From positions 3,198-67,197 of the forward strand of contig JBBTYN010000004.1 of the NCBI GenBank assembly GCA_038061755.1: a DNA stretch of 64,000 nt. The letters run 5' to 3'. This stretch comes from Patescibacteria group bacterium (GTDB taxonomy: Bacteria > Patescibacteriota > Minisyncoccia > Phycocordibacterales > UBA9973). Each line of letters begins with the position of its first letter. Position 1 is the first letter of the stretch. Below are positions 441 through 47,925 of the stretch, piece by piece. The notes beneath the pieces are model-generated. The model did no database searches. It was given only the letters and a program-made list of their open reading frames with translations, and was not told where the DNA came from. A program made the position numbers and the translations under genes.

Positions 441-1658
441 TTATTCTTTGTTCTTAAGATTACGCCTTATCTCATGAAGATTATTTCCAATATAGCAAAA
501 AAGCCTGTAATAATATCCTAATGACATTTTTGAATCTTTAGCTTCTATTTTAAACTCTTGTGGTAGATGTTTTTTTTTAAAAAGTAATGAAATAATCTGG
601 TCAGGAGGCATGCGCTCGAGTTCATCCCAAAGAGCGTATCCTTTTATGAGAATGATACAGCGTGCAAGTCTGGTAGCGTATTTCTTAAGGTAGGCAAGTT
701 TATATTCAAAACTATGATTGTTTGAATAATATACCTTTCTAACTAATTGTAAGTATTCCACAGAACGTATAAATATACTTTCAATGTATTGTTCTTTTGT
801 TACTTTTTTATACTGTTCGTGTAATATATCTTTTCCATAGATACATAAACCTTTTGTCACATATTCTAAAACAAATTCTCTTGTGAAAAAAGAAAGGTCG
901 TTTTTTATTTCAGTATTGGTATAAATATGAAAATCAAGATTTTCAAAATATTTTTCAAGAAAAACAAGTAAAGGTGTAATATCTACCTTGTCATCCTTAA
1001 TGACAATAGTCATATCGGTATCATGTATGTCGGCCTTGTGTATTTTTTTGTAAATAGAACCATAAAGAAAAATACAAGTAATATTAGATGCACATGGAAA
1101 TTTTGAAATGTCAGCGCTAATTTTTTCTACAGCAATATTAACTAATCTATTTACCTGATTTACTGATTTAATAAATATATTATAGGCTCGCTTAAGTTCA
1201 GTTTTATTAAAAGTGATAACATTTAAGGCGTCCCGATAAGTATACCATTCTGCAGATTCAATCTTTTTATTTACATCATTCCAATCGGCAGATGTTGGAG
1301 CAAGCTTATTCTCTACGCTAAACACATTAATATATAATTCTTTAAATAGAGTATGTTTTTCATCTAGGTCATAGCTATAACTGTCTGTGGCACAAAGGTC
1401 AATATATTTTAGTTGATCATATTCAATTCCAACTTCTTCTTTTATCTCCCTAAAAGCTGCATCAATTTGGCTTTCTTCCGGTTCTAATTTGCCTTTTGGA
1501 ATCCAAATCTCACCATTACTATGCTTTATTAGAAGTATATAAACACAAAAAGTTTCTTTATCCATGTAGAATATAAAACCACCCGAGGAAACTTTCTTTA
1601 CTATTTCTTTTTGTAACCCAGTTTCTTTTTTAGATTTTTTCAACTTATTTTTTTTCAT
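441..1658 (-). CDS. Fusion protein: N-terminal NUDIX hydrolase domain plus C-terminal Pol-beta-superfamily nucleotidyltransferase domain.
   Basis: The Nudix box GKLEPEESQIDAAFREIKEEVGI is a perfect match to G-x5-E-x7-REUxEExGU. A downstream motif, hGS-x11-DTD (LYGSIYKKIHKADIHDTDMTIV), is typical of minimal/CD-NTase-like nucleotidyltransferases. A helical tail of about 180 aa follows. Confidence 0.6.
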   Translation of the reverse strand: MKKNKLKKSKKETGLQKEIVKKVSSGGFIFYMDKETFCVYILLIKHSNGEIWIPKGKLEPEESQIDAAFREIKEEVGIEYDQLKYIDLCATDSYSYDLDEKHTLFKELYINVFSVENKLAPTSADWNDVNKKIESAEWYTYRDALNVITFNKTELKRAYNIFIKSVNQVNRLVNIAVEKISADISKFPCASNITCIFLYGSIYKKIHKADIHDTDMTIVIKDDKVDITPLLVFLEKYFENLDFHIYTNTEIKNDLSFFTREFVLEYVTKGLCIYGKDILHEQYKKVTKEQYIESIFIRSVEYLQLVRKVYYSNNHSFEYKLAYLKKYATRLARCIILIKGYALWDELERMPPDQIISLLFKKKHLPQEFKIEAKDSKMSLGYYYRLFCYIGNNLHEIRRNLKNKE

Positions 1659-1797
1659 GAATGAATTATATCAATGAATCAAAGAAAGTAAATAGCTACA
1701 TATTGCTGAATTCAATAGCAATAAGTTAATATAGTAAATATATATTATTACTGATACAATCTTTATATGCCCAACGAACTCCAAAACCCAATTTCGT

Positions 1798-1846
1798 ACT
1801 AGCAAGGACAGTTCTTACTAGCAAGGACAGTTCTTGCTAGTAAGAA
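1798..1846. repeat. A 19-bp unit (ACTAGCAAGGACAGTTCTT) repeated twice in tandem, followed by its partial inverse. Together they form a hairpin with a 14-bp stem and the near-palindrome AGCAAGgAC-a-GTTCTTGCT.
   Basis: Direct reading of the sequence. It lies in the divergent promoter region between the NUDIX-NTase gene (minus strand) and ORF 1982 (plus strand). Confidence 0.8.
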
Positions 1847-1981
1847 AAACTGGACACATGGTTTCGTATACAAAAATTTAATCTAATAAGCCCTTGAAAT
1901 AATTTCGTGCAAAAGTTATAATTAGATCATTAGAACTAGAAAATATTGTATTTCAGTTATTATTTATTATAATAGATATAT

Positions 1982-2737: not shown

Positions 2738-3583
2738 ATGGAAAAGATATCTCAAGAAATTACACTTTTTGCCGAACCAATATTTCATGCTGGAAGTTTT
2801 ACTGTTACCAATGCTCTTCTAACTTCTTGGGTTGTTGTTGCTATTATTATAATTTTATCTTTCGTTTTACGTTCAAGACTTAAAACAGTTCCTGGTAAAT
2901 TGCAAAATATTTTTGAATTAATAATTGAAAATGCTCTTGGTCTTTGTGACCAAGTTACAAATAGCAGAGCTCTCTCTGTAAAAATTTTTCCAATCGCTAT
3001 ATCAGTTTTTTTCTTTATTTTAATTAATAATTGGTTGGGGATACTTCCTTTCGGTGGTTTTGGAATCATAGAAAAAAGCGAGGAAGGTCTGGCATTTATT
3101 CCATTTCTTCGTGGAGGTACAGCTGATGTAAATACCACAATCGCGCTTGCAGTAATGGCAGTTGTTGGGGCAAATGTCTTTGGTGTTTTTTCGATCGGCC
3201 TATGGAAAACTTTTAATAAATATGTTAATCTAAAGGTGCTCGGGCAAATATTTACAAAAATAAGAGAAGACAAAACTGTAATTATTGTAGCTCCAATCAC
3301 GTTCTTTGTTGGTTTAATTGAAATTATTGGTGAATTTGCAAAAGTTGCTTCGCTTTCATTTCGTCTTTTTGGAAATGTATTTGCTGGAGAAGTCCTTTTG
3401 GTATCGATGGCAGCCCTAGTGGCTTATATCGTTCCGATACCTTTTCTTTTTCTAGAATTACTTGTGGGAGTTATCCAAGCATTGATTTTTTCAATTTTAT
3501 TGGTGGTTTATTTTACTATTGGAGCTACGGACCATGATGAGCATGAATCTGAACACAAGAAACATGCAATAGCCACAGTTTAA
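2738..3583 (+). CDS. atpB: ATP synthase F0 subunit a.
   Basis: Conserved SLSFRLFGNVFAGE motif containing the essential Arg, multiple TM helices, and operon context. Confidence 0.9.
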   Translation: MEKISQEITLFAEPIFHAGSFTVTNALLTSWVVVAIIIILSFVLRSRLKTVPGKLQNIFELIIENALGLCDQVTNSRALSVKIFPIAISVFFFILINNWLGILPFGGFGIIEKSEEGLAFIPFLRGGTADVNTTIALAVMAVVGANVFGVFSIGLWKTFNKYVNLKVLGQIFTKIREDKTVIIVAPITFFVGLIEIIGEFAKVASLSFRLFGNVFAGEVLLVSMAALVAYIVPIPFLFLELLVGVIQALIFSILLVVYFTIGATDHDEHESEHKKHAIATV

Positions 3584-3910: not shown

Positions 3911-4024
3911 GAAAATTTAAAATAGTTTCTTTCAAAAAGCAATCTATCTAGCAAAGCTTTGCTAGCGAACTGCTCGGCTCGTCAGCCTGCGCAAGGCTTT
4001 TCTTAAGAACTATTTTAAATTTTC
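3911..4024. repeat. A ~114-bp intergenic element bounded by perfect 17-bp inverted repeats (gaaaatttaaaatagtt / aactattttaaattttc). Inside it is the perfect 18-bp palindrome ctagcaaagctttgctag (3948..3965).
   Basis: Direct reading of the sequence. It fills the atpE-atpF intergenic region. Confidence 0.7.
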
Positions 4025-4035
4025 AAAAACTACCC

Positions 4036-4482
4036 ATGGATTCAATTATTTCAACATTTCATATAGATTGGAAAATTATTATTGCTCAAGCAATCAATTT
4101 CGGAGTTGTTTTTGTTGTTTTATATATTTTTGCTCTTAAGCCACTTTCCAAGCTGATGGTAGAACGTAGTGAAAGAATTTCTAAAGGAATTGATGATGCA
4201 AAAAAATCTAATGAATTGTTGCAACAATCTGCCGAAGAATATAAACAAAATACAATAAAATTAAGACAGATAGCAATTGATTCTCAAAAAGAACTTACTA
4301 AAGAGTTAGATCAATTGAGAGTAAAAAATCTAGATAGAATAAAAGCAGATAATAATGAATGGACAAAAAAGAGAGCGGAGCAGATGGAAATTGATAAAAA
4401 AGTTTTGGTTGAATCAGCAAAAAACGAACTCGTTACACTTGCGATGCTAGCCGTTAAAAAAATTATGGCAGAAAAAAAATAA
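4036..4482 (+). CDS. atpF: ATP synthase F0 subunit b.
   Basis: N-terminal TM helix followed by a long charged coiled coil, plus operon position. Confidence 0.85.
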   Translation: MDSIISTFHIDWKIIIAQAINFGVVFVVLYIFALKPLSKLMVERSERISKGIDDAKKSNELLQQSAEEYKQNTIKLRQIAIDSQKELTKELDQLRVKNLDRIKADNNEWTKKRAEQMEIDKKVLVESAKNELVTLAMLAVKKIMAEKK

Positions 4483-4920: not shown

Positions 4921-6415
4921 ATGTCAAACCATATCGTAGAAATTTTAAAAAAAGAAATAGAAAATTTTAAAACAGAAATTAAGGTTGAAAAAGTGGGTAA
5001 AGTATTAGAAGTTTTTGATGGCATTGCAAAAGTTTCTGGACTTTCAGATATTAAATCTTCTGAAATGGTAACTTTTTTGAATGGTGAGACGGGGGTGGCT
5101 CTTAACTTAGAGGAAGATACAGTCGGGGTAATTATTTTCGGGGAATTTTCTGCTATTAAAGAAGGGGATGAAGTAAAAGCTACTGGAAAAATTCTTGAAA
5201 TTCCAGTTTCTGATAGTATTTTAGGGAGAGTAGTAAATGCCATTGGTGTTCCTATTGATGGCAAGGGCGCTATAAAAGCCGGAAAAAACGGTTTGCAAAC
5301 TTATCCAATTGAAAAAGTGGCTTCAGGTGTTATTACTCGCTTATCTGTCTCAGAACCAGTTTCTACTGGTATAAAGGTTATTGATGCGATTATTCCTATT
5401 GGTCGTGGGCAACGCGAACTTATTATTGGTGATCGCCAAACTGGAAAAACCGCAATCGTTATTGATACAATTCTTAATCAAAAAGGTCAAGATATGATAT
5501 GCGTGTATGTCTCTATTGGTCAAAAAGATTCTAAATTGAGAAAGATTGAAGCGCGATTAGAAGAAGGCGGAGCGATGGCTTATACAGTTATCGTATCAGC
5601 TGGCGCTTCAGAAGCTGCTTCACTTTCTTATGTTGCGCCATATACAGGAGTAACTATTGCGGAATATTTTATGGATCAAGGTAAAGACGTTTTGATTATT
5701 TATGATGATCTTTCTAAACACGCTGTCGCTTATCGTGAAATTTCTCTTTTGCTCCGTCGTCCACCAGGTCGCGAGGCATACCCAGGAGATGTTTTTTATT
5801 TGCATTCTCGTTTGCTTGAACGCGCTTGTCGTAGAAATAAAGAATATGGCGGAGGTTCCATCACAGCTTTGCCTATTATTGAAACACAGGCTGGCGATGT
5901 GTCAGCATATATTCCAACAAATGTTATTTCTATTACTGATGGACAAATTTTTCTAGAAACTGATCTTTTTTATAAAGGTATTAGGCCTGCGGTAAATGTT
6001 GGTCTTTCTGTTTCTCGTGTTGGTTCTAGTGCTCAGATTAAAGCAATGAAAAAAGTGGCTGGGACATTAAAACTCGATTTAGCGCAGTTTCGTGAGCTTG
6101 AAGCATTTGCTCAATTTGGTTCTGATCTTGATGATGCCACCAAGCGCCAGCTTGAACGCGGAAAGAGAGCGGTAGAAGTATTAAAACAGCTTCAATATGC
6201 GCCAGTAAAAATTGAACACCAAATTGTCACGCTTTATGCTCTTACTAAAGGTTTTATGGATGATGTAGCAATTGATAAAATAAAAGAATTTGAACAAGGA
6301 TTCATGGAATATAGTGAACGTAATGCAAAAGTTTTTTATAAACAAATTGCTGAGAAAAAAATGTGGGATGATAAAGGCGAGGAGGAATTAAAAAAAGCAA
6401 TTGAGGATTTTAAAA

Positions 6416-6429
<14 letters not shown>
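4921..6429 (+). CDS. atpA: ATP synthase F1 alpha subunit.
   Basis: Walker A GDRQTGKT and the conserved alpha-subunit core. Confidence 0.95.
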
Positions 6430-8729
<2,300 letters not shown>

Positions 8730-9556: not shown

Positions 9557-10270
9557 ATGTCTAAATTTTATGTGGTGGCGACACCGATAGGAAATATGGG
9601 AGACATTACACTCCGAGCTATCGAAACACTAAAAAGTGTGGATTTGATATTGTGTGAAGATACTCGAGAGACTAAGAAGATTTTAGATAAATATGGTATC
9701 AGTAAAATAACTATGAGTTATCCATCCGATGATGTAATCGGAAAAAACTACAGACAAAGTAAGCTTGCAAAGATTTTAAGATTACTAGAAGAAGGGAAAA
9801 ATTTAGCATTAGTTTCAGACGCTGGTACACCAGGGATTTCTGATCCGGGAGCTTTACTTGTTTCTCAAATCAAAGAGCATTTTAATCCAGCAAGGGGAGT
9901 CCTTGCTGGAAAAGTGCAAGTTATTCCAATTCCGGGTCCTTCAGCCGTTATCGCTGCGCTCTCGGCCTCAGGATTACCAATTCATGAATTCACTTTTCTA
10001 GGTTTTTTGCCACACAAAAAAGGTAGGGAAACATTATTTAAAGAAATTTCGCAAGCAAAAAGAACGATGGTATTTTATGAATCTCCGCATAGAATATTAA
10101 AAACGCTAGAATCTCTTATAAAATATACCCCAAATAAAAAAGTCTGTATTGCTCGAGAATTGACAAAAATTTATGAAGAATTTAAAACAGGTACACCTGT
10201 TGAAGTTTTGGAATATTTTCAAAAGAATAAAGAGAAGCAAAGAGGGGAGTTTGTTGTTATAGTTTCTTGA
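9557..10270 (+). CDS. rsmI: 16S rRNA (cytidine1402-2'-O)-methyltransferase; tetrapyrrole-methylase fold.
   Basis: N-terminus LYVVATPIGNMGDITLRAIETLKSVDLILCEDTRETKKIL is diagnostic of RsmI. Confidence 0.85.
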   Translation: MSKFYVVATPIGNMGDITLRAIETLKSVDLILCEDTRETKKILDKYGISKITMSYPSDDVIGKNYRQSKLAKILRLLEEGKNLALVSDAGTPGISDPGALLVSQIKEHFNPARGVLAGKVQVIPIPGPSAVIAALSASGLPIHEFTFLGFLPHKKGRETLFKEISQAKRTMVFYESPHRILKTLESLIKYTPNKKVCIARELTKIYEEFKTGTPVEVLEYFQKNKEKQRGEFVVIVS

Positions 10271-10273
10271 AAA

Positions 10274-10317
10274 GCCAAAGGGCATCTTTGACACACTTGT
10301 CAAAGATGCCCTTTGGC
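10274..10317. repeat. Nested palindromic element, copy 1, variant A: gccaaagggcatctttgaca-cact-tgtcaaagatgccctttggc. It lies between the convergent genes rsmI and priA.
   Basis: Perfect 20-bp arms. Sits between two converging genes. Confidence 0.9.
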
Positions 10318-13383: not shown

Positions 13384-14165
13384 TTTCAAAACATTTAGAT
13401 AAGAATAATTTACACCATGCGTACTTGATAGAAGGCGCACAAAGTAAAATTATTCCGGATATCATAAAATTTTTAAAAAGTTTAGGTATAAACACTGTTG
13501 GTAATCCTGATTTTGTTAATATCTCAATTGATAATTTTAAAATTGATGAGGCTTTTAGTTTACGTTCCATGTCATCAGATAAAGGATTTTCTTCTGCTCT
13601 ATCTGCGCAGGCAGGAAAAAAGATATTTATGATTTGCGTTAACAATGTATCTTTAGATGCTCAAAATGTATTGCTAAAAATGTTTGAAGAGCCAATAGAA
13701 AATACACACTTTTTTTTGATAGTACCAGACGTTAATGCTCTTCTAAAAACTTTAGTCTCTAGATTTTATTTTGTTTCAGCTAGGCAAGATCTAGCTGAAA
13801 CAGAAGAAACGAGAAAGGCAGAAAAATTTATTACTATGTCGTTAAAAAGCAGAATTGATTTCATTAAAGAATTATTAGTAGAAGAGGAAACAGAAGATGA
13901 AGATGGAAATGAAATAGTTGTTTTAAATTCCACTCGTTCTAAAGCTTTAAAGTTTTTAAATGCGCTAGAGTTTGTTTTGCATAAAAAAATCTTAGATGTG
14001 TCCTTTAATATAAGTTTCTTTGAACATTTTTTTAAAGTTCGTAAATATTTACGTATGCCAGGTTCGTCCGCTAAAAGTTTAATGGAGTCAGTGGCATTAA
14101 TTATACCAAATATGTTACAATATGGAGTACCATATAAAAATGGCATTCGGACATTAAACAAATAA
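13380..14165 (+). CDS. holB: DNA polymerase III delta' subunit.
   Basis: HAYLIEG, LLKMFEEP and TLVSR motifs of the clamp-loader delta' subunit. Confidence 0.75.
   Translation: MISKHLDKNNLHHAYLIEGAQSKIIPDIIKFLKSLGINTVGNPDFVNISIDNFKIDEAFSLRSMSSDKGFSSALSAQAGKKIFMICVNNVSLDAQNVLLKMFEEPIENTHFFLIVPDVNALLKTLVSRFYFVSARQDLAETEETRKAEKFITMSLKSRIDFIKELLVEEETEDEDGNEIVVLNSTRSKALKFLNALEFVLHKKILDVSFNISFFEHFFKVRKYLRMPGSSAKSLMESVALIIPNMLQYGVPYKNGIRTLNK
13773..13801. repeat. Inverted repeat gtttcagctag-gcaagat-ctagctgaaac (11-bp arms) inside the holB coding region.
   Basis: Seen directly. It shares the core AGCTAGGCAAGAyCTAGC with the palindrome at 28161..28208. Confidence 0.7.
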
Positions 14166-14200
14166 ATTTGTTTATGCTCCTCATTTAATTTTATAAAACT

Positions 14201-14752
14201 ATGCAATATAATTTTTCAAATTTTAAAAATGAACTTAAAAAAGTAGAAGAATTTTTGAGTAAAGAATACAGTCAGTTGAATATCGGACGGGCATCGCCGA
14301 TGATTTTGGACGGAGTGTTCGTTGAATCATACGGTTCTTATGTTCCACTTAAGAATGTAGCTTCTGTGTCTATTGAAGATCCTAAGACATTGCGTATTGC
14401 ACCTTGGGATAAAAGTCAGGTAAAAGGTATTGAAAAGGCTATTGTTGATTCAAATTTAGGATTATCTGTGGCGACTGATGACTTAGGTATAAGAGTTATT
14501 TTTCCACAATTAACGACTGATACAAGAAAAACTCTTGTAAAAGTTTTAAAAGAAAAATTAGAAGAACAAAGAATTACTGTGCGTAAAGAACGTGAGGTGG
14601 TGTTTCGTGACATAGAAGTGAAAGAAAAAGAAGGCAAAATGACTGAAGACGAGTTGTTTCGCGCAAAAGAAGAATTACAAAAAATTATTAATGAAACCAA
14701 TGACAATCTTGAAGCAATTTTTGAGAAAAAAGAAAAAGAAGTAATGGGTTAA
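14201..14752 (+). CDS. frr: Ribosome recycling factor.
   Basis: LNIGRASPMILDGV...RIAPWD and the Frr helical bundle. Confidence 0.9.
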   Translation: MQYNFSNFKNELKKVEEFLSKEYSQLNIGRASPMILDGVFVESYGSYVPLKNVASVSIEDPKTLRIAPWDKSQVKGIEKAIVDSNLGLSVATDDLGIRVIFPQLTTDTRKTLVKVLKEKLEEQRITVRKEREVVFRDIEVKEKEGKMTEDELFRAKEELQKIINETNDNLEAIFEKKEKEVMG

Positions 14753-22138: not shown

Positions 22139-22154
22139 GTAAATTGCCAAAGAT

Positions 22155-22199
22155 GCCAAAGATGCCCTTTGACACTGAGTGTCAAAGGGCATCTTTGGC
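22155..22199. repeat. Nested palindromic element, copy 2, variant B: gccaaagatgccctttgacac-tga-gtgtcaaagggcatctttggc. It is preceded by a partial direct duplicate, gccaaagat. It lies between the convergent genes parB and rel.
   Basis: Perfect 21-bp arms. Confidence 0.9.
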
Positions 22200-22204
22200 A
22201 AACA

Positions 22205-25996: not shown

Positions 25997-26857
25997 TTAA
26001 GCCAATCTTATTTCTCCTAGTTCTTCTTTAATTAATCCTTTAATTTCCATTACTGACAAAAGTGCATTGGCATTTGGTGTTGGCATTTTCATTGCGCGGA
26101 TTAAATCATCTCGAGGTATCGGTTCACGTAAAAAACTCACAACTTTTTTTTCTTCAGGCAATAAATCTAAAAATAATTTAGCTTGTTTTTCTTTGTTTTC
26201 TGGAAGCTCAAAACCTAATGCTTCTAAAACATCTTCTGCGCAAGTAACAGGTGTTGCGCCTTGATGTAGTAATTTATTTACGCCTTTTGAATTTGGAGAA
26301 AAAATTGATCCAGGCACTACTAACAGATCTCTATTATATTCTGTCGTAAGTCGCGCAGTGATAAGGGTTCCAGATCTTTCTTCTGCTTCTATTATAAGCA
26401 CTGCTTTTGAAATCCCAGCCATGAGTCTATTTCTCATCGGGAAGCTCCATTGGGTCGCTTTGAAATCAGGTTCAAATTCTGAAATTAAACATCCGCCATT
26501 TTCTACAATCTCACTTATCAGTCTGACATTAGTTTTTGGATACATTGCTTCATTTGATAATCCTGAACCAGGAAAAACTAAAGTTTTTAATCCCACTTGC
26601 ATCGCTTTTTTGTGAGCAATAGTATCTATGCCCATAGCAAAACCAGAAACTATTACTATTGGATAACCCTTTAGGCCAGCAATTATTTTTTCGCAGGCTT
26701 CGCGTCCATAAGATGTAAATTTTCTTGAACCTACGACACAAAGATATATTAAATTTTCCGAAAGCATTTCACCGATAACCCAGAGATCTTCTGGCGGTTG
26801 GGGAATTTCTAATAGCGCTTTAGGAAATTTATTTTTTGGTAATTTCTTGATTTGCAT
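25997..26857 (-). CDS. dprA: DNA processing protein DprA (Smf).
   Basis: Rossmann-like DprA core (GxARGID-like region GFAMGID). Confidence 0.8.
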   Translation of the reverse strand: MQIKKLPKNKFPKALLEIPQPPEDLWVIGEMLSENLIYLCVVGSRKFTSYGREACEKIIAGLKGYPIVIVSGFAMGIDTIAHKKAMQVGLKTLVFPGSGLSNEAMYPKTNVRLISEIVENGGCLISEFEPDFKATQWSFPMRNRLMAGISKAVLIIEAEERSGTLITARLTTEYNRDLLVVPGSIFSPNSKGVNKLLHQGATPVTCAEDVLEALGFELPENKEKQAKLFLDLLPEEKKVVSFLREPIPRDDLIRAMKMPTPNANALLSVMEIKGLIKEELGEIRLA

Positions 26858-26899
26858 AAAAGTTTTGTATTTGTAATTATTTTATTGTATACTATTTAT

Positions 26900-28171
26900 A
26901 TGTTAGACATCAAATTTATTCGTGAAAATAAAGATATTGTGCAGGCGGGTGCGAAGAAAAAAAATATTGAGATAGATATTGATGCTTTGATTGTGCTTGA
27001 TGATAATCGCTTAAAAGAACTTAAAGAAGTAGAAGAACTTCGTAGTGAAGTAAATAGAGTTTCAAATGATATATCTCGCGATCAAGATCCAGCATCCAAA
27101 ATTCAACTAATTGAAGAAATGCGCGCAGTGAAAGAAGACATTAAAGCAAAAGAAGAAAAATTAAAAATAACCATAGAAGAATGGCAGAAAATTATGGTGC
27201 AAGTGCCTAATGTGCCAGATATGTCTGTACCAGATGGAAAAACAGATGTGGAAAACAAAGAAGTAAAAGTTTGGGGTGAAATTCCAAAATTTGATTTTAC
27301 TCCTAAAAATCATATTGAGCTTATGGAAAATTTAGGAATACTTGATATGGCTAGAGGTGTAAAAGTTGCTGGTTTTCGTGGATATTTTTTAAAGGGTGAT
27401 GGAGCTCTTCTTGAATTTGCTTTATGGCAGTTTGTGCAGGATTTCTTTTCTAAAAAAGGAGGCTTTATTCCGATGATTGTTCCTTCTCTTTTGAAACGAG
27501 AAGTATTTTTAGGTACTGGTTATCTTCCGCAAGGTGAAGAAGATTTATACAAAACGCAAGATGGCGAGTATTTATCAGGTACAGCAGAAGTTGCAATGAT
27601 GGGGCACTATATGGGTGAAATTTTAGAAAAAAAAGATCTGCCAATAAAAATGCTTGGATTTTCTTCTGCTTTTCGTCGTGAGGCGGGAAGTCATGGTAAA
27701 GATACAAAAGGTATTCTTAGAGTTCATGAATTTTTTAAATTTGAACAAGTTGTACTTTGTGAAGCACAACATACAGAATCAGTAAAATTTCATGAAGAAA
27801 TACAACGTAATACTGAAGAAATTATGGAGGCATTAGGATTGCCTTATCATGTGGTAATAAACTGTGCTGGAGATCTTGGTTTGGGTCAAGTTAAAAAATA
27901 TGACATTGAAGCTTATTTGCCATCTGAAAATACCTATCGGGAAACTGGTTCTGCTAGTTATTTTCATGATTTTCAAACAAGACGATTAAATATCCGTTAT
28001 CGTGATGAAAATGGTAAATTAAAATTTGTTCACTCTTTAAATAATACTGCTCTTTCTGGTAGACCACTCATTATGATAGTAGAAAACTACCAACAAGCAG
28101 ACGGATCTATAAAAATTCCAGAAGTTTTACGCAAATACATGGGAGGTAAGGAATTTATAAAAAATAGCTAG
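26900..28171 (+). CDS. serS: Seryl-tRNA synthetase.
   Basis: N-terminal coiled coil MLDIKFIREN and class II motifs. ATG 26900 preferred as the start. Confidence 0.9.
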   Translation: MLDIKFIRENKDIVQAGAKKKNIEIDIDALIVLDDNRLKELKEVEELRSEVNRVSNDISRDQDPASKIQLIEEMRAVKEDIKAKEEKLKITIEEWQKIMVQVPNVPDMSVPDGKTDVENKEVKVWGEIPKFDFTPKNHIELMENLGILDMARGVKVAGFRGYFLKGDGALLEFALWQFVQDFFSKKGGFIPMIVPSLLKREVFLGTGYLPQGEEDLYKTQDGEYLSGTAEVAMMGHYMGEILEKKDLPIKMLGFSSAFRREAGSHGKDTKGILRVHEFFKFEQVVLCEAQHTESVKFHEEIQRNTEEIMEALGLPYHVVINCAGDLGLGQVKKYDIEAYLPSENTYRETGSASYFHDFQTRRLNIRYRDENGKLKFVHSLNNTALSGRPLIMIVENYQQADGSIKIPEVLRKYMGGKEFIKNS

Positions 28172-28208
28172 GCAAGACCTAGCATGCTAGGTCTTGCCTA
28201 GCTATTTT
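28161..28208. repeat. Perfect 48-bp palindrome aaaatagctaggcaagacctagcatgctaggtcttgcctagctatttt. It overlaps the serS stop codon.
   Basis: Seen directly. Likely a terminator or attenuator hairpin between serS and the downstream gene. Confidence 0.85.
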
Positions 28209-28213
28209 ACACA

Positions 28214-29101
28214 ATGCAAAAAAGAAATGTTTTAAATTCTCCTGGTCTTTTAGAATTAAAAAAAAGAAGGCATAGAGTTTTTTTTAATAAAGTTTTAATT
28301 TTTTTGTTTGGAGTTTTAGTAATTTTCTTATTATTAGTTTATCTTTCTTGTCTTAATAAATTAAATATTAGTGAAGTGGAGATTCTTGGTAATAAAGTTT
28401 TAGATACAGAAAAATTAAATAATGCAGTAGAAAAGCAAATTGCTGGAAAATATTTATGGCTTTTCCCTAAGACTAATATTTTAATATATCCCCAAAATAC
28501 TATTAAGAACGAACTTCAAAATGAGTTTAAGAGAATTAAAGATATTAATTTGAAGATTAAAAATACTAAAATATTAGAAGTATTATTGACTGAAAGAGAA
28601 GCGAAATATACTTGGTGCGGGATAATTTTTTCTGGTGTTGGAATCCCACAGGGAAGTCCAATACCCGAAAAAAAAGAAGAAAATTGTTATTTTATGGATG
28701 AAGATGGTTATATTTTTGATGAAGCGCCATATTTTTCTGGTGAAATTTATTTTAGGTTTTATGGTCAGGTAAATAGTAATCCTATTGGATTTTATTTTTT
28801 TGAACAAAATTTTAAACAATTAGTTGCTTTTAGAGATATTCTTATTAGTATTGGATTAAAACCTATAGCATTAAATATTTTGAATATTGAAGACGCAGAA
28901 ATTATTCTTTCAAGTGAAACTTCTTTAATAAATGAACCTAAAATTATTTTTAGATTAAATGCTGATTTTCAAAATGTTGCAGAAAATTTACAAACAGCTT
29001 TAAATACCGAACCCCTAAAATCAAAATTTAAAAATAAATATTCAATGTTGCAATATATTGATTTGCGATTCAAAAATAAAGTTTATGACAAATTCCAATA
29101 A
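28214..29101 (+). CDS. ftsQ: FtsQ/DivIB-like cell-division protein (TM helix plus POTRA domain).
   Basis: N-terminal TM helix and a POTRA-like segment (ISEVEILGNKVL...LLTEREAKYTW). Confidence 0.5.
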   Translation: MQKRNVLNSPGLLELKKRRHRVFFNKVLIFLFGVLVIFLLLVYLSCLNKLNISEVEILGNKVLDTEKLNNAVEKQIAGKYLWLFPKTNILIYPQNTIKNELQNEFKRIKDINLKIKNTKILEVLLTEREAKYTWCGIIFSGVGIPQGSPIPEKKEENCYFMDEDGYIFDEAPYFSGEIYFRFYGQVNSNPIGFYFFEQNFKQLVAFRDILISIGLKPIALNILNIEDAEIILSSETSLINEPKIIFRLNADFQNVAENLQTALNTEPLKSKFKNKYSMLQYIDLRFKNKVYDKFQ

Positions 29102-30137
29102 AAAAAATTTCTGGAAAAATCTTGAAAAACCATTTTTTTGTTTAGCGCCAATGTCGGACGTTACCGATATTGCTTTCCGCTCCATATTGATGAAATATAG
29201 CAAGGATAGAGAAAATAAAAACAGTGTTGTTTTTTGGACAGAATTTGTTGCAGCTGATGGTTTGTGCAATAAACTTGCTAGAAAAAAACTAGCGCATATA
29301 TTAAAATTTAAAGAGAGCGAAAGACCAATTGTAGCTCAAGTTTTTGGTGCTAATCCTGATAATATGAAGTATGCTTGCCAATATATTGCTAGCCTTGGTT
29401 TTGATGGGATAGATATAAATATGGGTTGTCCAGATAAATCTGTGGTAAGCCAAGGAGCAGGTTCTGGTTTGATTAAAAATCCATTACTTGCCAGAAAAAT
29501 TATACAGGCGGCACACGCTGGGATAGATTCTGCTGGTCTACATATCCCAGTATCTATTAAAACAAGAATTGGTTTTAATAAAGAAGAAATTGATATTTGG
29601 ATAGGGGAATTGTTAAAAGAGGATATTTCTGCTTTAACAATTCATTTGCGTACCACTAAGGAATTATCACTTGCACCGGCACATTGGGATTTAATGAAAA
29701 GAATTATTGAATTACGAAATAAAATAAGCCCAGAGACTTTAATAATTGGCAATGGAGATGTAAAAGATTTAAAAGATGGGGAGGAAAAAGCTCTAAAGTA
29801 TGGTTGTGATGGAGTTATGATCGGTCGTGGAGTTTTTGGTAATCCTTGGTTTTTTAAAAGCCAAAGGGCACCTTTGACACACTTGTCAAAGGTGCCCTTT
29901 GGCAATGAGGAATCAAATGTTAAAGAAAAATTAAAAATTTTAGTAGAGCACACACAGATTTTCGAAAAGGAACTTTCAGGACCTAAACATAAAAGTTTTG
30001 CCGTTATGAAAAAGCATTTTAAAGCGTATGTGAATGGTTTTGAAGATGCAAAAGAGCTTCGAGTAAAATTAATGGAAACAGAAAATGCTAAAGAAGTTGA
30101 GAAGATAGTTAATGATTTTTTAACTCGCCTACATTAA
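29058..30137 (+). CDS. dus: tRNA-dihydrouridine synthase. It carries an in-frame copy of the palindromic element at 29860..29903.
   Basis: FFCLAPMSDVTD, VAQVFG, INMGCP and GVMIGRG motifs of Dus. The start may instead be ATG 29085. Confidence 0.85.
   Translation: MICDSKIKFMTNSNKKNFWKNLEKPFFCLAPMSDVTDIAFRSILMKYSKDRENKNSVVFWTEFVAADGLCNKLARKKLAHILKFKESERPIVAQVFGANPDNMKYACQYIASLGFDGIDINMGCPDKSVVSQGAGSGLIKNPLLARKIIQAAHAGIDSAGLHIPVSIKTRIGFNKEEIDIWIGELLKEDISALTIHLRTTKELSLAPAHWDLMKRIIELRNKISPETLIIGNGDVKDLKDGEEKALKYGCDGVMIGRGVFGNPWFFKSQRAPLTHLSKVPFGNEESNVKEKLKILVEHTQIFEKELSGPKHKSFAVMKKHFKAYVNGFEDAKELRVKLMETENAKEVEKIVNDFLTRLH
29860..29903. repeat. Nested palindromic element, copy 3, variant A. It lies inside the dus ORF and is translated as QRAPLTHLSKVPFG.
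   Basis: Perfect palindrome with the ORF left open. Relative to copy 1 it has the compensatory change t/a to c/g. Confidence 0.9.
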
Positions 30138-31391: not shown

Positions 31392-31462
31392 TGGGAGATC
31401 GTCTAATGGTAGGACACCTCCCTTTGAAGGAGGTTATCTTGGTTCGAATCCAAGCCTCCCAG
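31392..31462 (+). tRNA. tRNA-Gln (anticodon UUG).
   Basis: U1-A72 pair as in bacterial tRNA-Gln. Anticodon stem CCTCC/GGAGG with loop CTTTGAA, T-arm CTTGG-TTCGAAT-CCAAG, one A-C mismatch at positions 7-66. Confidence 0.75.
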
Positions 31463-31497
31463 CAGTGGTGAGAATTAACAAGATCTTTGAAGCCGTG

Positions 31498-31534
31498 GTA
31501 TAGCAAGGTATAGCAAGAACGGTTCTTGCTATAC
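31498..31534. repeat. Perfect 27-bp palindrome gtatagcaagaac-g-gttcttgctatac, preceded by a direct duplicate of its first 10 nt.
   Basis: Seen directly. It has the same AGCAAGAAC half-site as the repeat at 1798..1846. Confidence 0.85.
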
Positions 31535-31542
31535 CAAATAAT

Positions 31543-32088
31543 TTATTTATTAATTTCCTCCATAAGACTTTCAACACTTTGTCCTGTATAAAGAATAGTC
31601 TTTAAATTTGGATATTTTTTAAAATCAAGATTTTCAAAGTGCTTTACTTTATCATCAATAAATATTACCTTTTCATTTTTATGTTTTGCGCATATTTTTT
31701 CTACAGATTCCTTTTTGCTTCCTTGAACGACAATAATTTTAGAAAATAGGGAAGTAATATCTGTTTTTTTTATTTTATCTAATTGCCATTCCTCGCCTCC
31801 ATGGGTTACGATATAGCAATTTTCTTTTCCTAATTTCTTTATTTCATTTACTAAATCTTTATTCAAAAAATTCTCACTCCTTTCTAAAATTTTTTCATAC
31901 CAATCTTCTTTAAGAGAAAAATGACTTAGCATTTCTTTTAACCAAAATCCACTTATCCTTACTCCTTTATAATATTCTTTGGCTTGAGTACGAGGTATAC
32001 CTGCTTTTTCTAAACACGCATACATATGATCCTTAAATTGTTTTGTATTATTAAACAAGACATCATCAAAATCAAAAATATATTTCAT
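31543..32088 (-). CDS. HAD-superfamily hydrolase.
   Basis: N-terminal DxD motif (FDFDDVLF), a C-terminal Asp motif (IFIDDK), and an overall HAD topology. Confidence 0.6.
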   Translation of the reverse strand: MKYIFDFDDVLFNNTKQFKDHMYACLEKAGIPRTQAKEYYKGVRISGFWLKEMLSHFSLKEDWYEKILERSENFLNKDLVNEIKKLGKENCYIVTHGGEEWQLDKIKKTDITSLFSKIIVVQGSKKESVEKICAKHKNEKVIFIDDKVKHFENLDFKKYPNLKTILYTGQSVESLMEEINK

Positions 32089-46377: not shown

Positions 46378-47925
46378 ATGATAAAAGAAAATAAAAAAAT
46401 AAAATCAGCTTTAATTTCAGTTTTTAATAAAGATGGACTTGAAGAAATTGTAAAACTTCTTCATAGGCATAATGTAAAAATTATTTCTACTGGTGGTACG
46501 GCAGAATTTATTCGCAAACTTAGTGTACCAGTAACTGAAGTAGAAGAAATCACAAATTATCCTGCCTTATTTGGTGGTAGAGTTAAAACACTGCAACCAC
46601 AAATTTTTGGCGGGATTTTAAATCGCCGAGATAATGTAAATGATATAAAAGAAAAAGTGGAGCACAAAATAGAAGACATTGATTTGGTAATCGTAGACCT
46701 ATATCCATTTGAAGAAACTCTAGCTAGTGGAGCTAATGAGGAAGAAATTATTGAAAAAATAGACATCGGCGGAGTATCTTTAATTCGCGCAGCGGCGAAA
46801 AATTTTAATGATGTCGTAGTGATTCCTTCAAAACATCAATATGAAGAATTAAAAAATATTTTAAAAATAAGTGACACTACGACATTAGAACAACGCAAAA
46901 AATTTGCAGGCAATGCATTTGAAGTGACAAGTATTTACGATAGTGCTATTCGTGGGTATTTTCAACCTTTGCCAAAGATGCCCTTTGACATATTGATGTC
47001 AAAGGGCATCTTTGGCAATATCCCGCTGCGCTATGGAGAAAACCCACACCAAAGAGCAAAATTTATAGGTAATTTAGAAGAGAGTTTTATACAACTTCAT
47101 GGAAAAGAGCTTTCTTATAATAATTTGATGGATACTGAAGCTGCCATTATGACCGTTTATGATTTTAGAGATCCTGCTTTCGCTATTGTTAAACATATGA
47201 ATACTTGCGGTCTGGCTGTTAGGGAAGAAGGACATTTATTTGAGGCGTATCAAGCAGCTTATAATGCCGACCCACTTTCAGCTTTTGGTGGAGTATTAAC
47301 AGCTAATAGAATTATTGAGGAAGACATCGCTAAACTTATCAAGGAACAAAAACTTTTTATAGAAGTAATTATTGCGCCAGATTTTTCAAAAGAAGCTTTA
47401 AATATTTTAATGGAGAAAAAGGATTGTAGAATTTTGAGGTGGAAAAAACCAAACCTTCCGCTAAAACAAAACAAGACTTGCTTTACTGGAATTCTGTCGC
47501 AAGATCGAGATACTCATATAGAAAGTGAGACAGATTTAAAAGTGACAACTAAGCGTGAACCAACAGAGCAAGAGAAAAAGGATTTACTCATTGCTGCAGT
47601 AATAACGAAACATTTAAAATCTAATGCTATCGCTTTAGTAAAAGATGGAACACTTCTTTCAATGGGTTGTGGACAAACTTCACGCATTGATGCATTAAAA
47701 CAAGCTATTGATAAAGCCAAAAAATTTAAATTTTCACTCAAGGGTGCTGTTATGTCATCTGAAGCATTTTTCCCATTTCCTGATTGCGTAGAGATGGCAG
47801 GGGAAGAAGGTATAACTGCTGTACTTCATCCTGGAGGTTCAAAGAATGATCAAACATCCATAGATATGGCAAATAAATACAAAATGGCAATGGTAACAAC
47901 TGGCTTTAGACATTTTAAGCATTGA
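46378..47925 (+). CDS. purH: Bifunctional AICAR transformylase / IMP cyclohydrolase. It carries an in-frame copy of the palindromic element at 46971..47016.
   Basis: MGS-like N-terminal domain and an AICARFT domain (LRYGENPHQ). Confidence 0.9.
   Translation: MIKENKKIKSALISVFNKDGLEEIVKLLHRHNVKIISTGGTAEFIRKLSVPVTEVEEITNYPALFGGRVKTLQPQIFGGILNRRDNVNDIKEKVEHKIEDIDLVIVDLYPFEETLASGANEEEIIEKIDIGGVSLIRAAAKNFNDVVVIPSKHQYEELKNILKISDTTTLEQRKKFAGNAFEVTSIYDSAIRGYFQPLPKMPFDILMSKGIFGNIPLRYGENPHQRAKFIGNLEESFIQLHGKELSYNNLMDTEAAIMTVYDFRDPAFAIVKHMNTCGLAVREEGHLFEAYQAAYNADPLSAFGGVLTANRIIEEDIAKLIKEQKLFIEVIIAPDFSKEALNILMEKKDCRILRWKKPNLPLKQNKTCFTGILSQDRDTHIESETDLKVTTKREPTEQEKKDLLIAAVITKHLKSNAIALVKDGTLLSMGCGQTSRIDALKQAIDKAKKFKFSLKGAVMSSEAFFPFPDCVEMAGEEGITAVLHPGGSKNDQTSIDMANKYKMAMVTTGFRHFKH
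46971..47016. repeat. Nested palindromic element, copy 4, variant B. It lies inside the purH ORF at the inter-domain linker and is translated as LPKMPFDILMSKGIFG.
   Basis: gccaaagatgccctttgacat-attg-atgtcaaagggcatctttggc with 21-bp perfect arms. The ORF is left open. Confidence 0.9.

Follow-up and report, generated by a model that had tools for sequence, protein, structure and literature searches.

Two palindromic sites in a 64,000-nucleotide stretch of Patescibacteria DNA, which we refer to as the window, are very probably REP copies of a REP–RAYT system that is widespread in Patescibacteria, in genomes of the Paceibacteria/Parcubacteria type. The unit that they share would be a hairpin palindrome of the form T-AGCAAG(A/G)AC-N-GT(T/C)CTTGC-T-A, which is extended by another 2–5 base pairs that vary in sequence from copy to copy and from genome to genome. 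The window contains three palindromes at two sites, and we found neither a further copy nor a RAYT homologue in 82 kb of the source genome (the window with 8 kb upstream and 10 kb downstream), a copy density that is low for a REP family. The link of the window copies to a transposase in their own genome would therefore run through the family to which they appear to belong.

The first site had been described in an earlier note as a tandemly duplicated 19-mer that forms a hairpin, and this description is borne out in its details. The 19-mer ACTAGCAAGGACAGTTCTT occupies positions 1798–1816, recurs at 1817–1835 and is then followed by GCTAGTAAGAA, and a repeat search of the window returned three 19-nt units at 1793–1849 with identities of 100, 95 and 68%. 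A hairpin scan recovered the 14-bp stem proposed at 1812–1846 as a perfect stem with a 7-nt loop, and the proposed 9-1-9 near-palindrome is found as AGCAAGGACAGTTCTTGCT at 1820–1838. The site can alternatively be read as a 17-nt inverted repeat, 94% complementary around a 1-nt centre, with one G·T mismatch that is there because the core is a hybrid of two family alleles (Table 1); across genomes, the double variant AAGGAC/GTCCTT exists alongside AAGAAC/GTTCTT. Written as half-sites, positions 1801–1847 form an alternating array a-a'-a-a'-a of the 9-mer AGCAAGGAC and its complement, in which the degenerate first palindrome is the product of the 19-nt duplication. This region is identical in all eight assemblies of the source population, among which the duplication shows no strain polymorphism and there is no sign of ongoing mobility.

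At the second site, the perfect 9-1-9 palindrome that the same note had reported is AGCAAGAACGGTTCTTGCT at 31512–31530, with the core AGCAAGAAC-N-GTTCTTGCT, and its left half is indeed duplicated: the base of the left arm, the 10-mer GGTATAGCAA, stands twice in tandem at 31497–31516. The element follows the gene for tRNA-Gln at a distance of 44 nt, and 8 nt separate it from the stop end of a HAD-family gene in convergent orientation (31543–32088, minus strand). Folded as single-stranded DNA, the hairpins reach −12.4 to −14.5 kcal/mol, and their z-scores range from −5.2 to −7.1, values that no shuffled sequence equalled, and both sites carry the short palindromes with stable stems that are expected of a REP. 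When up to three mismatches to the pattern are allowed, there are eight strand-matches in the window, compared to a mean of 0.08 after dinucleotide shuffling, and none of 100 shuffles reached eight. A possible decayed copy at 9886–9910 sits in a variable loop of an rsmI-like gene. Rfam models applied to the window at the gathering threshold returned nothing beyond three tRNAs.

Table 1. Positions of the palindromic elements in the window and of the neighbouring features that give them context.
Feature	Positions	Strand	Description
Probable REP cluster, site 1	1793..1849	.	Three 19-nt tandem units; half-sites AGCAAGGAC / GTTCTTRCT alternating
Degenerate first palindrome AGCAAGGACAGTTCTTACT	1801..1819	.	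One mismatch to the pattern AGCAAGRACNGTTCTTGCT
Probable REP core AGCAAGGAC-A-GTTCTTGCT	1820..1838	.	Hybrid of the alleles AAGAAC/GTTCTT and AAGGAC/GTCCTT
Hairpin with 14-bp perfect stem	1812..1846	.	Core lengthened by the flanks TTCTTACT / AGTAAGAA
Predicted sigma-70 promoter, ATP synthase gene cluster	1894..1922	+	Near-consensus TTGAAA-17-TATAAT, ~48 nt downstream of the hairpin; context only
Predicted promoter-like site, NUDIX gene	1665..1692	-	~120 nt from the hairpin; context only
Probable REP, site 2	31496..31536	.	14-bp perfect stem 31507–31535, perfect core 31512–31530, left-arm base duplicated
tRNA-Gln(UUG) gene	31392..31463	+	Upstream of site 2; context only
Possible decayed copy TCCAGCAAGGGGAGTCCTTGCTGGA	9886..9910	.	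10-bp stem; weak pattern match 9889–9907; family membership uncertain

To place these sites in a wider context, we scanned one genome per species (596 Gb) for exact matches to AGCAAGRACNGTTCTTGCT and obtained at least 118 loci. The matches listed include 105 loci from 69 Patescibacteria assemblies, with the labels Paceibacterota, Nomurabacteria, Zambryskibacteria, Staskawiczbacteria, Taylorbacteria, Doudnabacteria and Wildermuthbacteria as well as ‘Saccharibacteria’-labelled MAGs and unlabelled ‘bacterium’ MAGs. The other 13 loci among the matches listed come from other taxa and lie mostly within ORFs, a number to be read against a rough estimate of ~17 matches by chance. The earlier note had named occurrence at only two sites as grounds for abandoning its reading; the motif is confined to two sites within the window, but not across genomes. 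A literature search for the motif returned primers and siRNAs only.

Many of these loci hold several copies, with a maximum of five in 8 kb (L029), and the 19-nt core is identical in the 69 assemblies among the matches listed, which bear different candidate-phylum names. Immediately outside the core, 77% of the copies have T at position −1 and 22% have A, with position +1 mirroring it. Further out, positions −2/+2, −3/+3 and −4/+4 are variable in base yet complementary in 71, 54 and 42% of the copies (28, 32 and 26% in controls); thus, the stem is lengthened by co-varying pairs. A GTAG consensus is absent from the 5' foot, where positions −2 to −4 vary. Duplication of the arm base, which we counted when the outer 5 nt of an arm and 4 nt of flank reappear on that side no more than 45 nt away, affects 35 of 146 copies (24%) with periods of 9–21 nt, compared to ~0.04 expected by chance, and the duplicated left half of both window sites is an instance of this family-wide trait. 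Turnover of copies is suggested by a single presence/absence case (n = 1), in which a relative at 78% nucleotide identity (L010) has a copy upstream of its orthologue of the window gene 14201–14752 and the window has none.

The strongest clue to what these repeats are comes from the gene that they enclose. In 10 motif-fetched loci from 10 assemblies, pairs of palindromes 718–775 nt apart surround an ORF of 222–231 amino acids, and tblastn places a homologue of this ~225-residue ORF in 18 motif-fetched loci. At least 16 loci (16 gene flanks inspected) have the palindrome flanking the gene on either side, ~30 nt upstream and 0–45 nt downstream. To avoid circularity, we also fetched loci of two further gene families by the protein only (P0072 and P0075), and there the palindrome again lies ~30 nt upstream and 9–20 nt downstream of the gene, in the variants GCGCAAGAACGGTTCTTGCGC and TTAAGCAAGGACCGTCCTTGCTTAA. 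The rayT gene of E. coli (NC_000913) has the same layout with its own REP. What defines a REP–RAYT system is this placement of a palindrome to either side of a RAYT-type gene, as described for REP and RAYT (TnpA-REP) of E. coli and Pseudomonas and for REPINs (Bertels and Rainey 2011, PMC3116915; Bertels 2017, PMC5581495).

The similarity of the enclosed protein to RAYT is remote at the level of sequence. It matches Pfam Y1_Tnp (PF01797) with 26.8 bits (cut-off 23), and its sole NCBIfam match is REP_Tyr_transpos (NF047646) with 31.9 bits, which is below the equivalog cut-off of 80. The same model is the best NCBIfam match, likewise below its cut-off, for all 68 members of a diverse set of relatives (best E value 2.8 × 10−13), one of which also matches IS200. 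Across 13 aligned proteins, 66–74% identical to the first sequence, the residues H86-F-H88 are invariant, as is Y147 within G-Y-I-H-L-N-P, and hhalign lays HFH on the HMH and YIHLNP on the YIYINP of E. coli RayT, with an E value of 0.0019 and a probability of 14%. The proteins form 2,381 clusters at 90% identity, essentially one 50% cluster inside a wider superfamily, and carry only the database labels ‘transposase’ or ‘hypothetical’.

A search of the PDB with a narrow profile of the protein gave no match, and a profile of the 68 diverse sequences returned three ISDra2 TnpA entries and the TnpA-REP entry 4ER8 with E values of 0.02–0.04, the only other hit being 3now (UNC-45) with an E value of 1.3. 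With the diverse 68-sequence alignment, AlphaFold produced a model with a pLDDT of 94.4, compared to 40.8 with a shallow alignment of sequences 70–79% identical. The best fold match of this model in the PDB is 4ER8_A, a RAYT bound to a REP hairpin (E value 1.6 × 10−5, TM-score 0.65 on the target). The TnpA proteins of IS608, ISDra2 and IS200 follow with E values of 2 × 10−3 to 3 × 10−2, interleaved with Thg1 guanylyltransferase at much lower TM-scores.

The Y1_Tnp fold and its motifs would also suit an autonomous transposase of the IS200/IS605 type, in which case the dispersed palindromes would be solo ends or MITE-like derivatives rather than part of a domesticated REP–RAYT partnership. The neighbourhood of the gene differs between genomes, one locus has two tandem gene copies and a fragment (L103) and another has a fragment (L040), all of which would fit such an element. 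We nevertheless consider this very unlikely. IS200/IS605 elements such as IS608 and ISDra2, whose TnpA has the same Y1 HUH fold and whose recognition of subterminal hairpins in single-stranded DNA may, by homology, be shared, carry two different imperfect hairpins at their left and right ends and are present as whole elements in several copies, whereas here one symmetric palindrome brackets the gene on both sides and is far commoner alone than beside it. In every assembly with several loci, the gene is present in one locus only (8–20 kb loci read). Also arguing against an insertion sequence are the profile matches, in which the RAYT model is matched by 68 of 68 relatives and IS200 by one, and the order of fold matches, with TnpA-REP ahead of the TnpA proteins of IS608 and ISDra2.

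Support for a REP–RAYT system also comes from within the window, where there is a second palindrome family. Long palindromes of GCCAAAGGGCA(Y)CTTTGACA are present at 10274–10317, 22154–22200, 29860–29903 and 46969–47018; they are inverted doublets and REPIN-like. Two of these copies lie in frame inside dus and purH, where they insert 15–17 residues. Scanning metagenomes for the unit yielded 33 loci, five of which have a different RAYT-like gene, 33–43% identical to the wider family, right beside it; in at least four of these five, the unit stands on both sides of the gene. As a second family that flanks a RAYT clade of its own, it constitutes an independent replicate and thus strengthens the REP–RAYT reading for this genome.

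As for their position relative to genes, 94 of the 121 copies that lie away from locus edges are intergenic (~78%), although 84% of the DNA is coding and 16% non-coding. Of the intergenic copies, 63 are in tandem, 17 in convergent and 14 in divergent contexts, with a modest enrichment per kb in convergent regions; they are usually found 5–60 nt after a stop codon. Such a placement, the stability of the stems and the position of site 2 behind a tRNA gene would be accounted for if the hairpins were intrinsic terminators or stabilisers of RNA 3' ends that are alike by convergence or descent and unrelated to transposition. As the primary explanation, this is likewise very unlikely. Site 1 lies between divergent genes, with nothing upstream to terminate on either strand, and we found no terminator-like site within 1600–2050. 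The stems have 36–43% G+C, in a window of 33% G+C, and a T-rich tail follows 14% of the copies, compared to 10.5% of random positions, so that the copies do not qualify as canonical intrinsic terminators. Termination would also leave unexplained why the 19-nt core is identical across so many assemblies and why the palindrome brackets a transposase gene. A secondary use of REP copies as terminators is possible at some sites, for example at site 2, where the element may double as a 3' hairpin of tRNA-Gln and of the gene that converges on it.

The surroundings of site 1 bear on its reading as a regulatory site. To its left lies a gene with a NUDIX domain (441–1658, minus strand), and to its right ORF 1982–2371, which directly precedes 2441–2734 (ATPase_gene1) and 2738–3583 (ATP-synt_A) and therefore heads the ATP synthase gene cluster. 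For this position, the earlier note had proposed an operator bound by a dimeric regulator or, alternatively, a small mobile repeat. The second proposal agrees with a REP that flanks a RAYT gene elsewhere; the first fares poorly, as the element overlaps neither of the predicted core promoters here and the other site is convergent. Spelled out, a transcription factor that binds the palindrome as a dimer would control the divergent promoters of the NUDIX gene and of the ATP synthase genes or, more narrowly, RAYT would bind it to repress its own gene. The 9-1-9 dyad symmetry and the conservation of the core across many genomes are what one would expect of an operator, and so is the arrangement in front of the RAYT gene. 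There, visual inspection of 16 loci showed, in at least 10, a −10 box 17 nt from the outer TTGCT(A/T) of the upstream palindrome, and the ATG follows 6–8 nt after that box; with this spacing, TTGCT(A/T) falls exactly at −35 and the REP thus provides the RAYT promoter with its −35 element, which may, speculatively, allow RAYT to regulate itself.

This placement is, however, specific to the RAYT gene. Site 1 lies between the two predicted divergent promoters without overlapping either, its centre ~100 nt upstream of the estimated atp start, and site 2 is located between convergent genes. Most copies come after stop codons, their flanks co-vary so as to extend the stem rather than being conserved as contact bases, and tandem arm duplications and arrays are common. 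In an unsystematic look at the loci we saw no regulator gene alongside the motif, and what does co-occur is the Y1/HUH transposase gene. An operator is accordingly the least probable of the three explanations weighed against REP–RAYT, and as a REP copy the element at site 1 is probably a neutral passenger between two divergent promoters. Separately, the idea of the REP as a general portable −35 element is unsupported, as the only spike is at the 17-nt spacer and stems mostly from RAYT loci.

Three other candidates can be set aside: a DNA-uptake sequence, since half-sites on their own show no enrichment in the window and exact AGCAAGAAC and GTTCTTGCT occur only inside palindromes; a LexA/SOS box (GAAC..GTTC), since the spacing here is 1 nt and not 4; and a TIGR-Tas or CRISPR-like array, since neither variable spacers nor an array are present. 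On LexA, a passage in PMC7739468 (citing Sanchez-Osuna 2017) has that of Patescibacteria among its examples of LexA proteins that recognise direct repeats.

For the REP–RAYT system, homology to E. coli TnpA-REP and to the TnpA of IS200/IS605 suggests how the repeats might spread. The transposase would recognise the REP as a hairpin in single-stranded DNA, and would nick and rejoin the strand beside it. Such nicking and rejoining could mobilise the repeat, seeding and maintaining copies in non-essential intergenic DNA. The duplications of 19 nt at site 1 and of 10 nt at site 2, in each of which the arm base and its flank are repeated in tandem, would most likely have arisen through slippage at the hairpin or through successive nicks made at its foot.

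Compared with known systems, the patescibacterial repeat resembles the REPs of E. coli and Pseudomonas in being short, hairpin-forming and mostly extragenic, and E. coli rayT in that a Y1/HUH transposase gene has one and the same repeat on either side. Its clusters in alternating orientation are reminiscent of BIMEs, and the protein is like RAYT in its HUH motif, its Y-I-x-x-N-P tyrosine motif and its best fold match. REP and RAYT are reportedly also the subject of work by Nunvar 2010 and by Ton-Hoang and Messing 2012. Whereas the E. coli REP is an asymmetric, imperfect hairpin, the unit described here has perfect dyad symmetry around a 1-nt centre, and unlike the enterobacterial group-2 REPs it has no GTAG foot, a feature that defines an E. 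coli subgroup and not REPs generally. The protein, with ~225 residues and a conserved C-terminal extension (YSSYxDY), is longer than the 165-residue RAYT of E. coli. Proteobacterial REPs are largely species-specific, in contrast to the single 19-nt core shared here.

A further comparison is with the Rickettsia palindromic elements (RPEs), which are 100–150 bp long. To our knowledge, no transposase is associated with them. They are said to be palindromic repeats of a small genome, some of them in frame in genes (Ogata et al. 2000). Palindromes also lie in frame in genes of the window (copies of the second family within dus and purH, and perhaps 9886–9910 within rsmI), although these in-frame copies, unlike RPEs, belong mainly to the second family and not to that of the AGCAAGAAC element.

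A joint reading of these observations, which we put forward tentatively and consider less likely than not, would be that REP–RAYT partnerships are old and class-wide in Patescibacteria, with two or more clades, each paired with its own palindrome, a core that stays constant across dozens of assemblies, a REP that doubles as the −35 element of its RAYT gene, and in-frame entry into dus, purH and perhaps rsmI. If true, this would make the system a long-lived intragenomic replicator, and no recent invader, in some of the smallest free bacterial genomes.

REP–RAYT systems are a known class that has been studied almost entirely in Proteobacteria, and our search for literature linking RAYT and Patescibacteria found none; the analysis presented here extends the class to this group, whose genomes are presumably small. 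It also makes the site-1 hairpin, at the confidence given above, a genomic repeat of a known class and not a switch by which the ATP synthase gene cluster is regulated. In genome scans of candidate phyla, palindromes of this kind will pass for operators, terminators or small RNAs, and they may break metagenome assemblies. What is unusual for REPs is that the core is identical across 69 assemblies among the matches listed, beside a transposase that is 65–79% identical between assemblies, and that the dyad is perfect. This provides a tractable case in which to ask whether a REP–RAYT system is inherited vertically and what it contributes to streamlined genomes.

In the 5' flanks of genes for the REP-associated tyrosine transposase (RAYT), found in loci from other genomes and metagenomes (L numbers), the upstream palindrome of the main family (REP) ends in TTGCT(A/T) exactly 17 nt before a -10 box (18 nt in L131). 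This layout is seen in L082, L003, L053, L040, L105, L116, L004, L129 and L131, among others, and no arrangement other than this one of palindrome end and -10 box upstream of the RAYT gene gives a spike at a 17-nt spacer. Given this spacing, the REP is the source of the putative -35 element of the RAYT promoter. The -10 box is often TGnTAnAAT and the RAYT ATG follows 6-8 nt past it; the mRNA is probably leaderless.

L103 carries tandem RAYT copies (5632-7121), namely two genes and an N-terminal fragment, with a palindrome before each, and in L040 a 95-residue RAYT fragment (5088-5381) lies upstream of the intact gene, which together point to local duplication around REPs. Whole REP units form tandem arrays with periods of 40-66 nt in L020 (5022-5135), L004, L085 and L067 (6941-6999), and the array unit of L004 and L085 also contains a hairpin distinct from the REP, which runs into a T tract and looks like a terminator. 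The presence of a REP differs between the window and L010, a locus of a relative at 78% nucleotide identity: the stretch at 1-75 of L010 contains a REP with a duplicated right arm, together with a TTGATATAAT box, upstream of the orthologue of the window gene at 14201-14752, whereas the matching place in the window (14137-14200) holds an unrelated A+T-rich palindrome, TAAACAAATAAATTTGTTTA.

Further palindromes in the window.
Type	Position	Structure	Location
Second family	10274-10317	Long perfect palindrome, stem within 20-23 bp	
Second family	22154-22200	Long perfect palindrome, stem within 20-23 bp	
Second family	29860-29903	Long perfect palindrome, stem within 20-23 bp	dus (29058-30137), in frame, without stop codons
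Second family	46969-47018	Long perfect palindrome, stem within 20-23 bp	purH (46378-47925), in frame, without stop codons
Third type	13772-13802	12-bp stem	Within DNA polymerase III delta-prime-like ORF
Third type	28161-28208	24-nt arms, no loop	Overlaps final bases of seryl-tRNA synthetase gene (26852-28171)
TCCAGCAAGGGGAGTCCTTGCTGGA	9886-9910	10-bp stem	Within rsmI-like gene
CTAGCAAAGCTTTGCTAG	3948-3965	9+9 perfect palindrome	Gap between ATP synthase c subunit gene and next ATP synthase ORF (4036-4482)

The window holds several other palindromes. The ATP synthase palindrome, whose neighbouring c subunit gene was taken from the gene call in L119 (the locus of the source contig), shares CTAGCAA with the REP arm at site 1, and its surroundings (3930-4000) match L075 (7453-7523) at 83% identity. 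At 5048-5748 of L119, just outside the window and roughly 2.3-3.0 kb upstream of where it begins, an HTH_17 gene adjoins a Fic-domain gene. The third palindrome type is built on AGCTAGGCAAGA(C/T)CTAGC and has two copies. The stem in the rsmI-like gene is two changes away from the variant AGCAAGGAC-N-GTCCTTGCT and sits in a variable loop of the protein (residues NPARGVLAG), where the L068 orthologue has a longer, different insert; the stem could be an in-frame REP that has decayed.

In each palindrome of the second family the unit GCCAAAGGGCA(Y)CTTTGACA occurs twice, in inverted arrangement. The palindromes in dus and purH encode the peptides SQRAPLTHLSKVPFG and LPKMPFDILMSKGIFGN and are reminiscent of Rickettsia palindromic elements inserted in frame; the Pfam Dus match runs across the palindrome-encoded segment, and the PurH of L005 lacks 7 residues at the position of the insert. 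In a metagenome scan, the unit directly adjoins a different RAYT-like gene in 5 of 33 loci and flanks it on both sides in at least four of these (L145, L156, L158 and L167). This placement suggests that the copies in the window are REPIN doublets belonging to a second REP-RAYT system.
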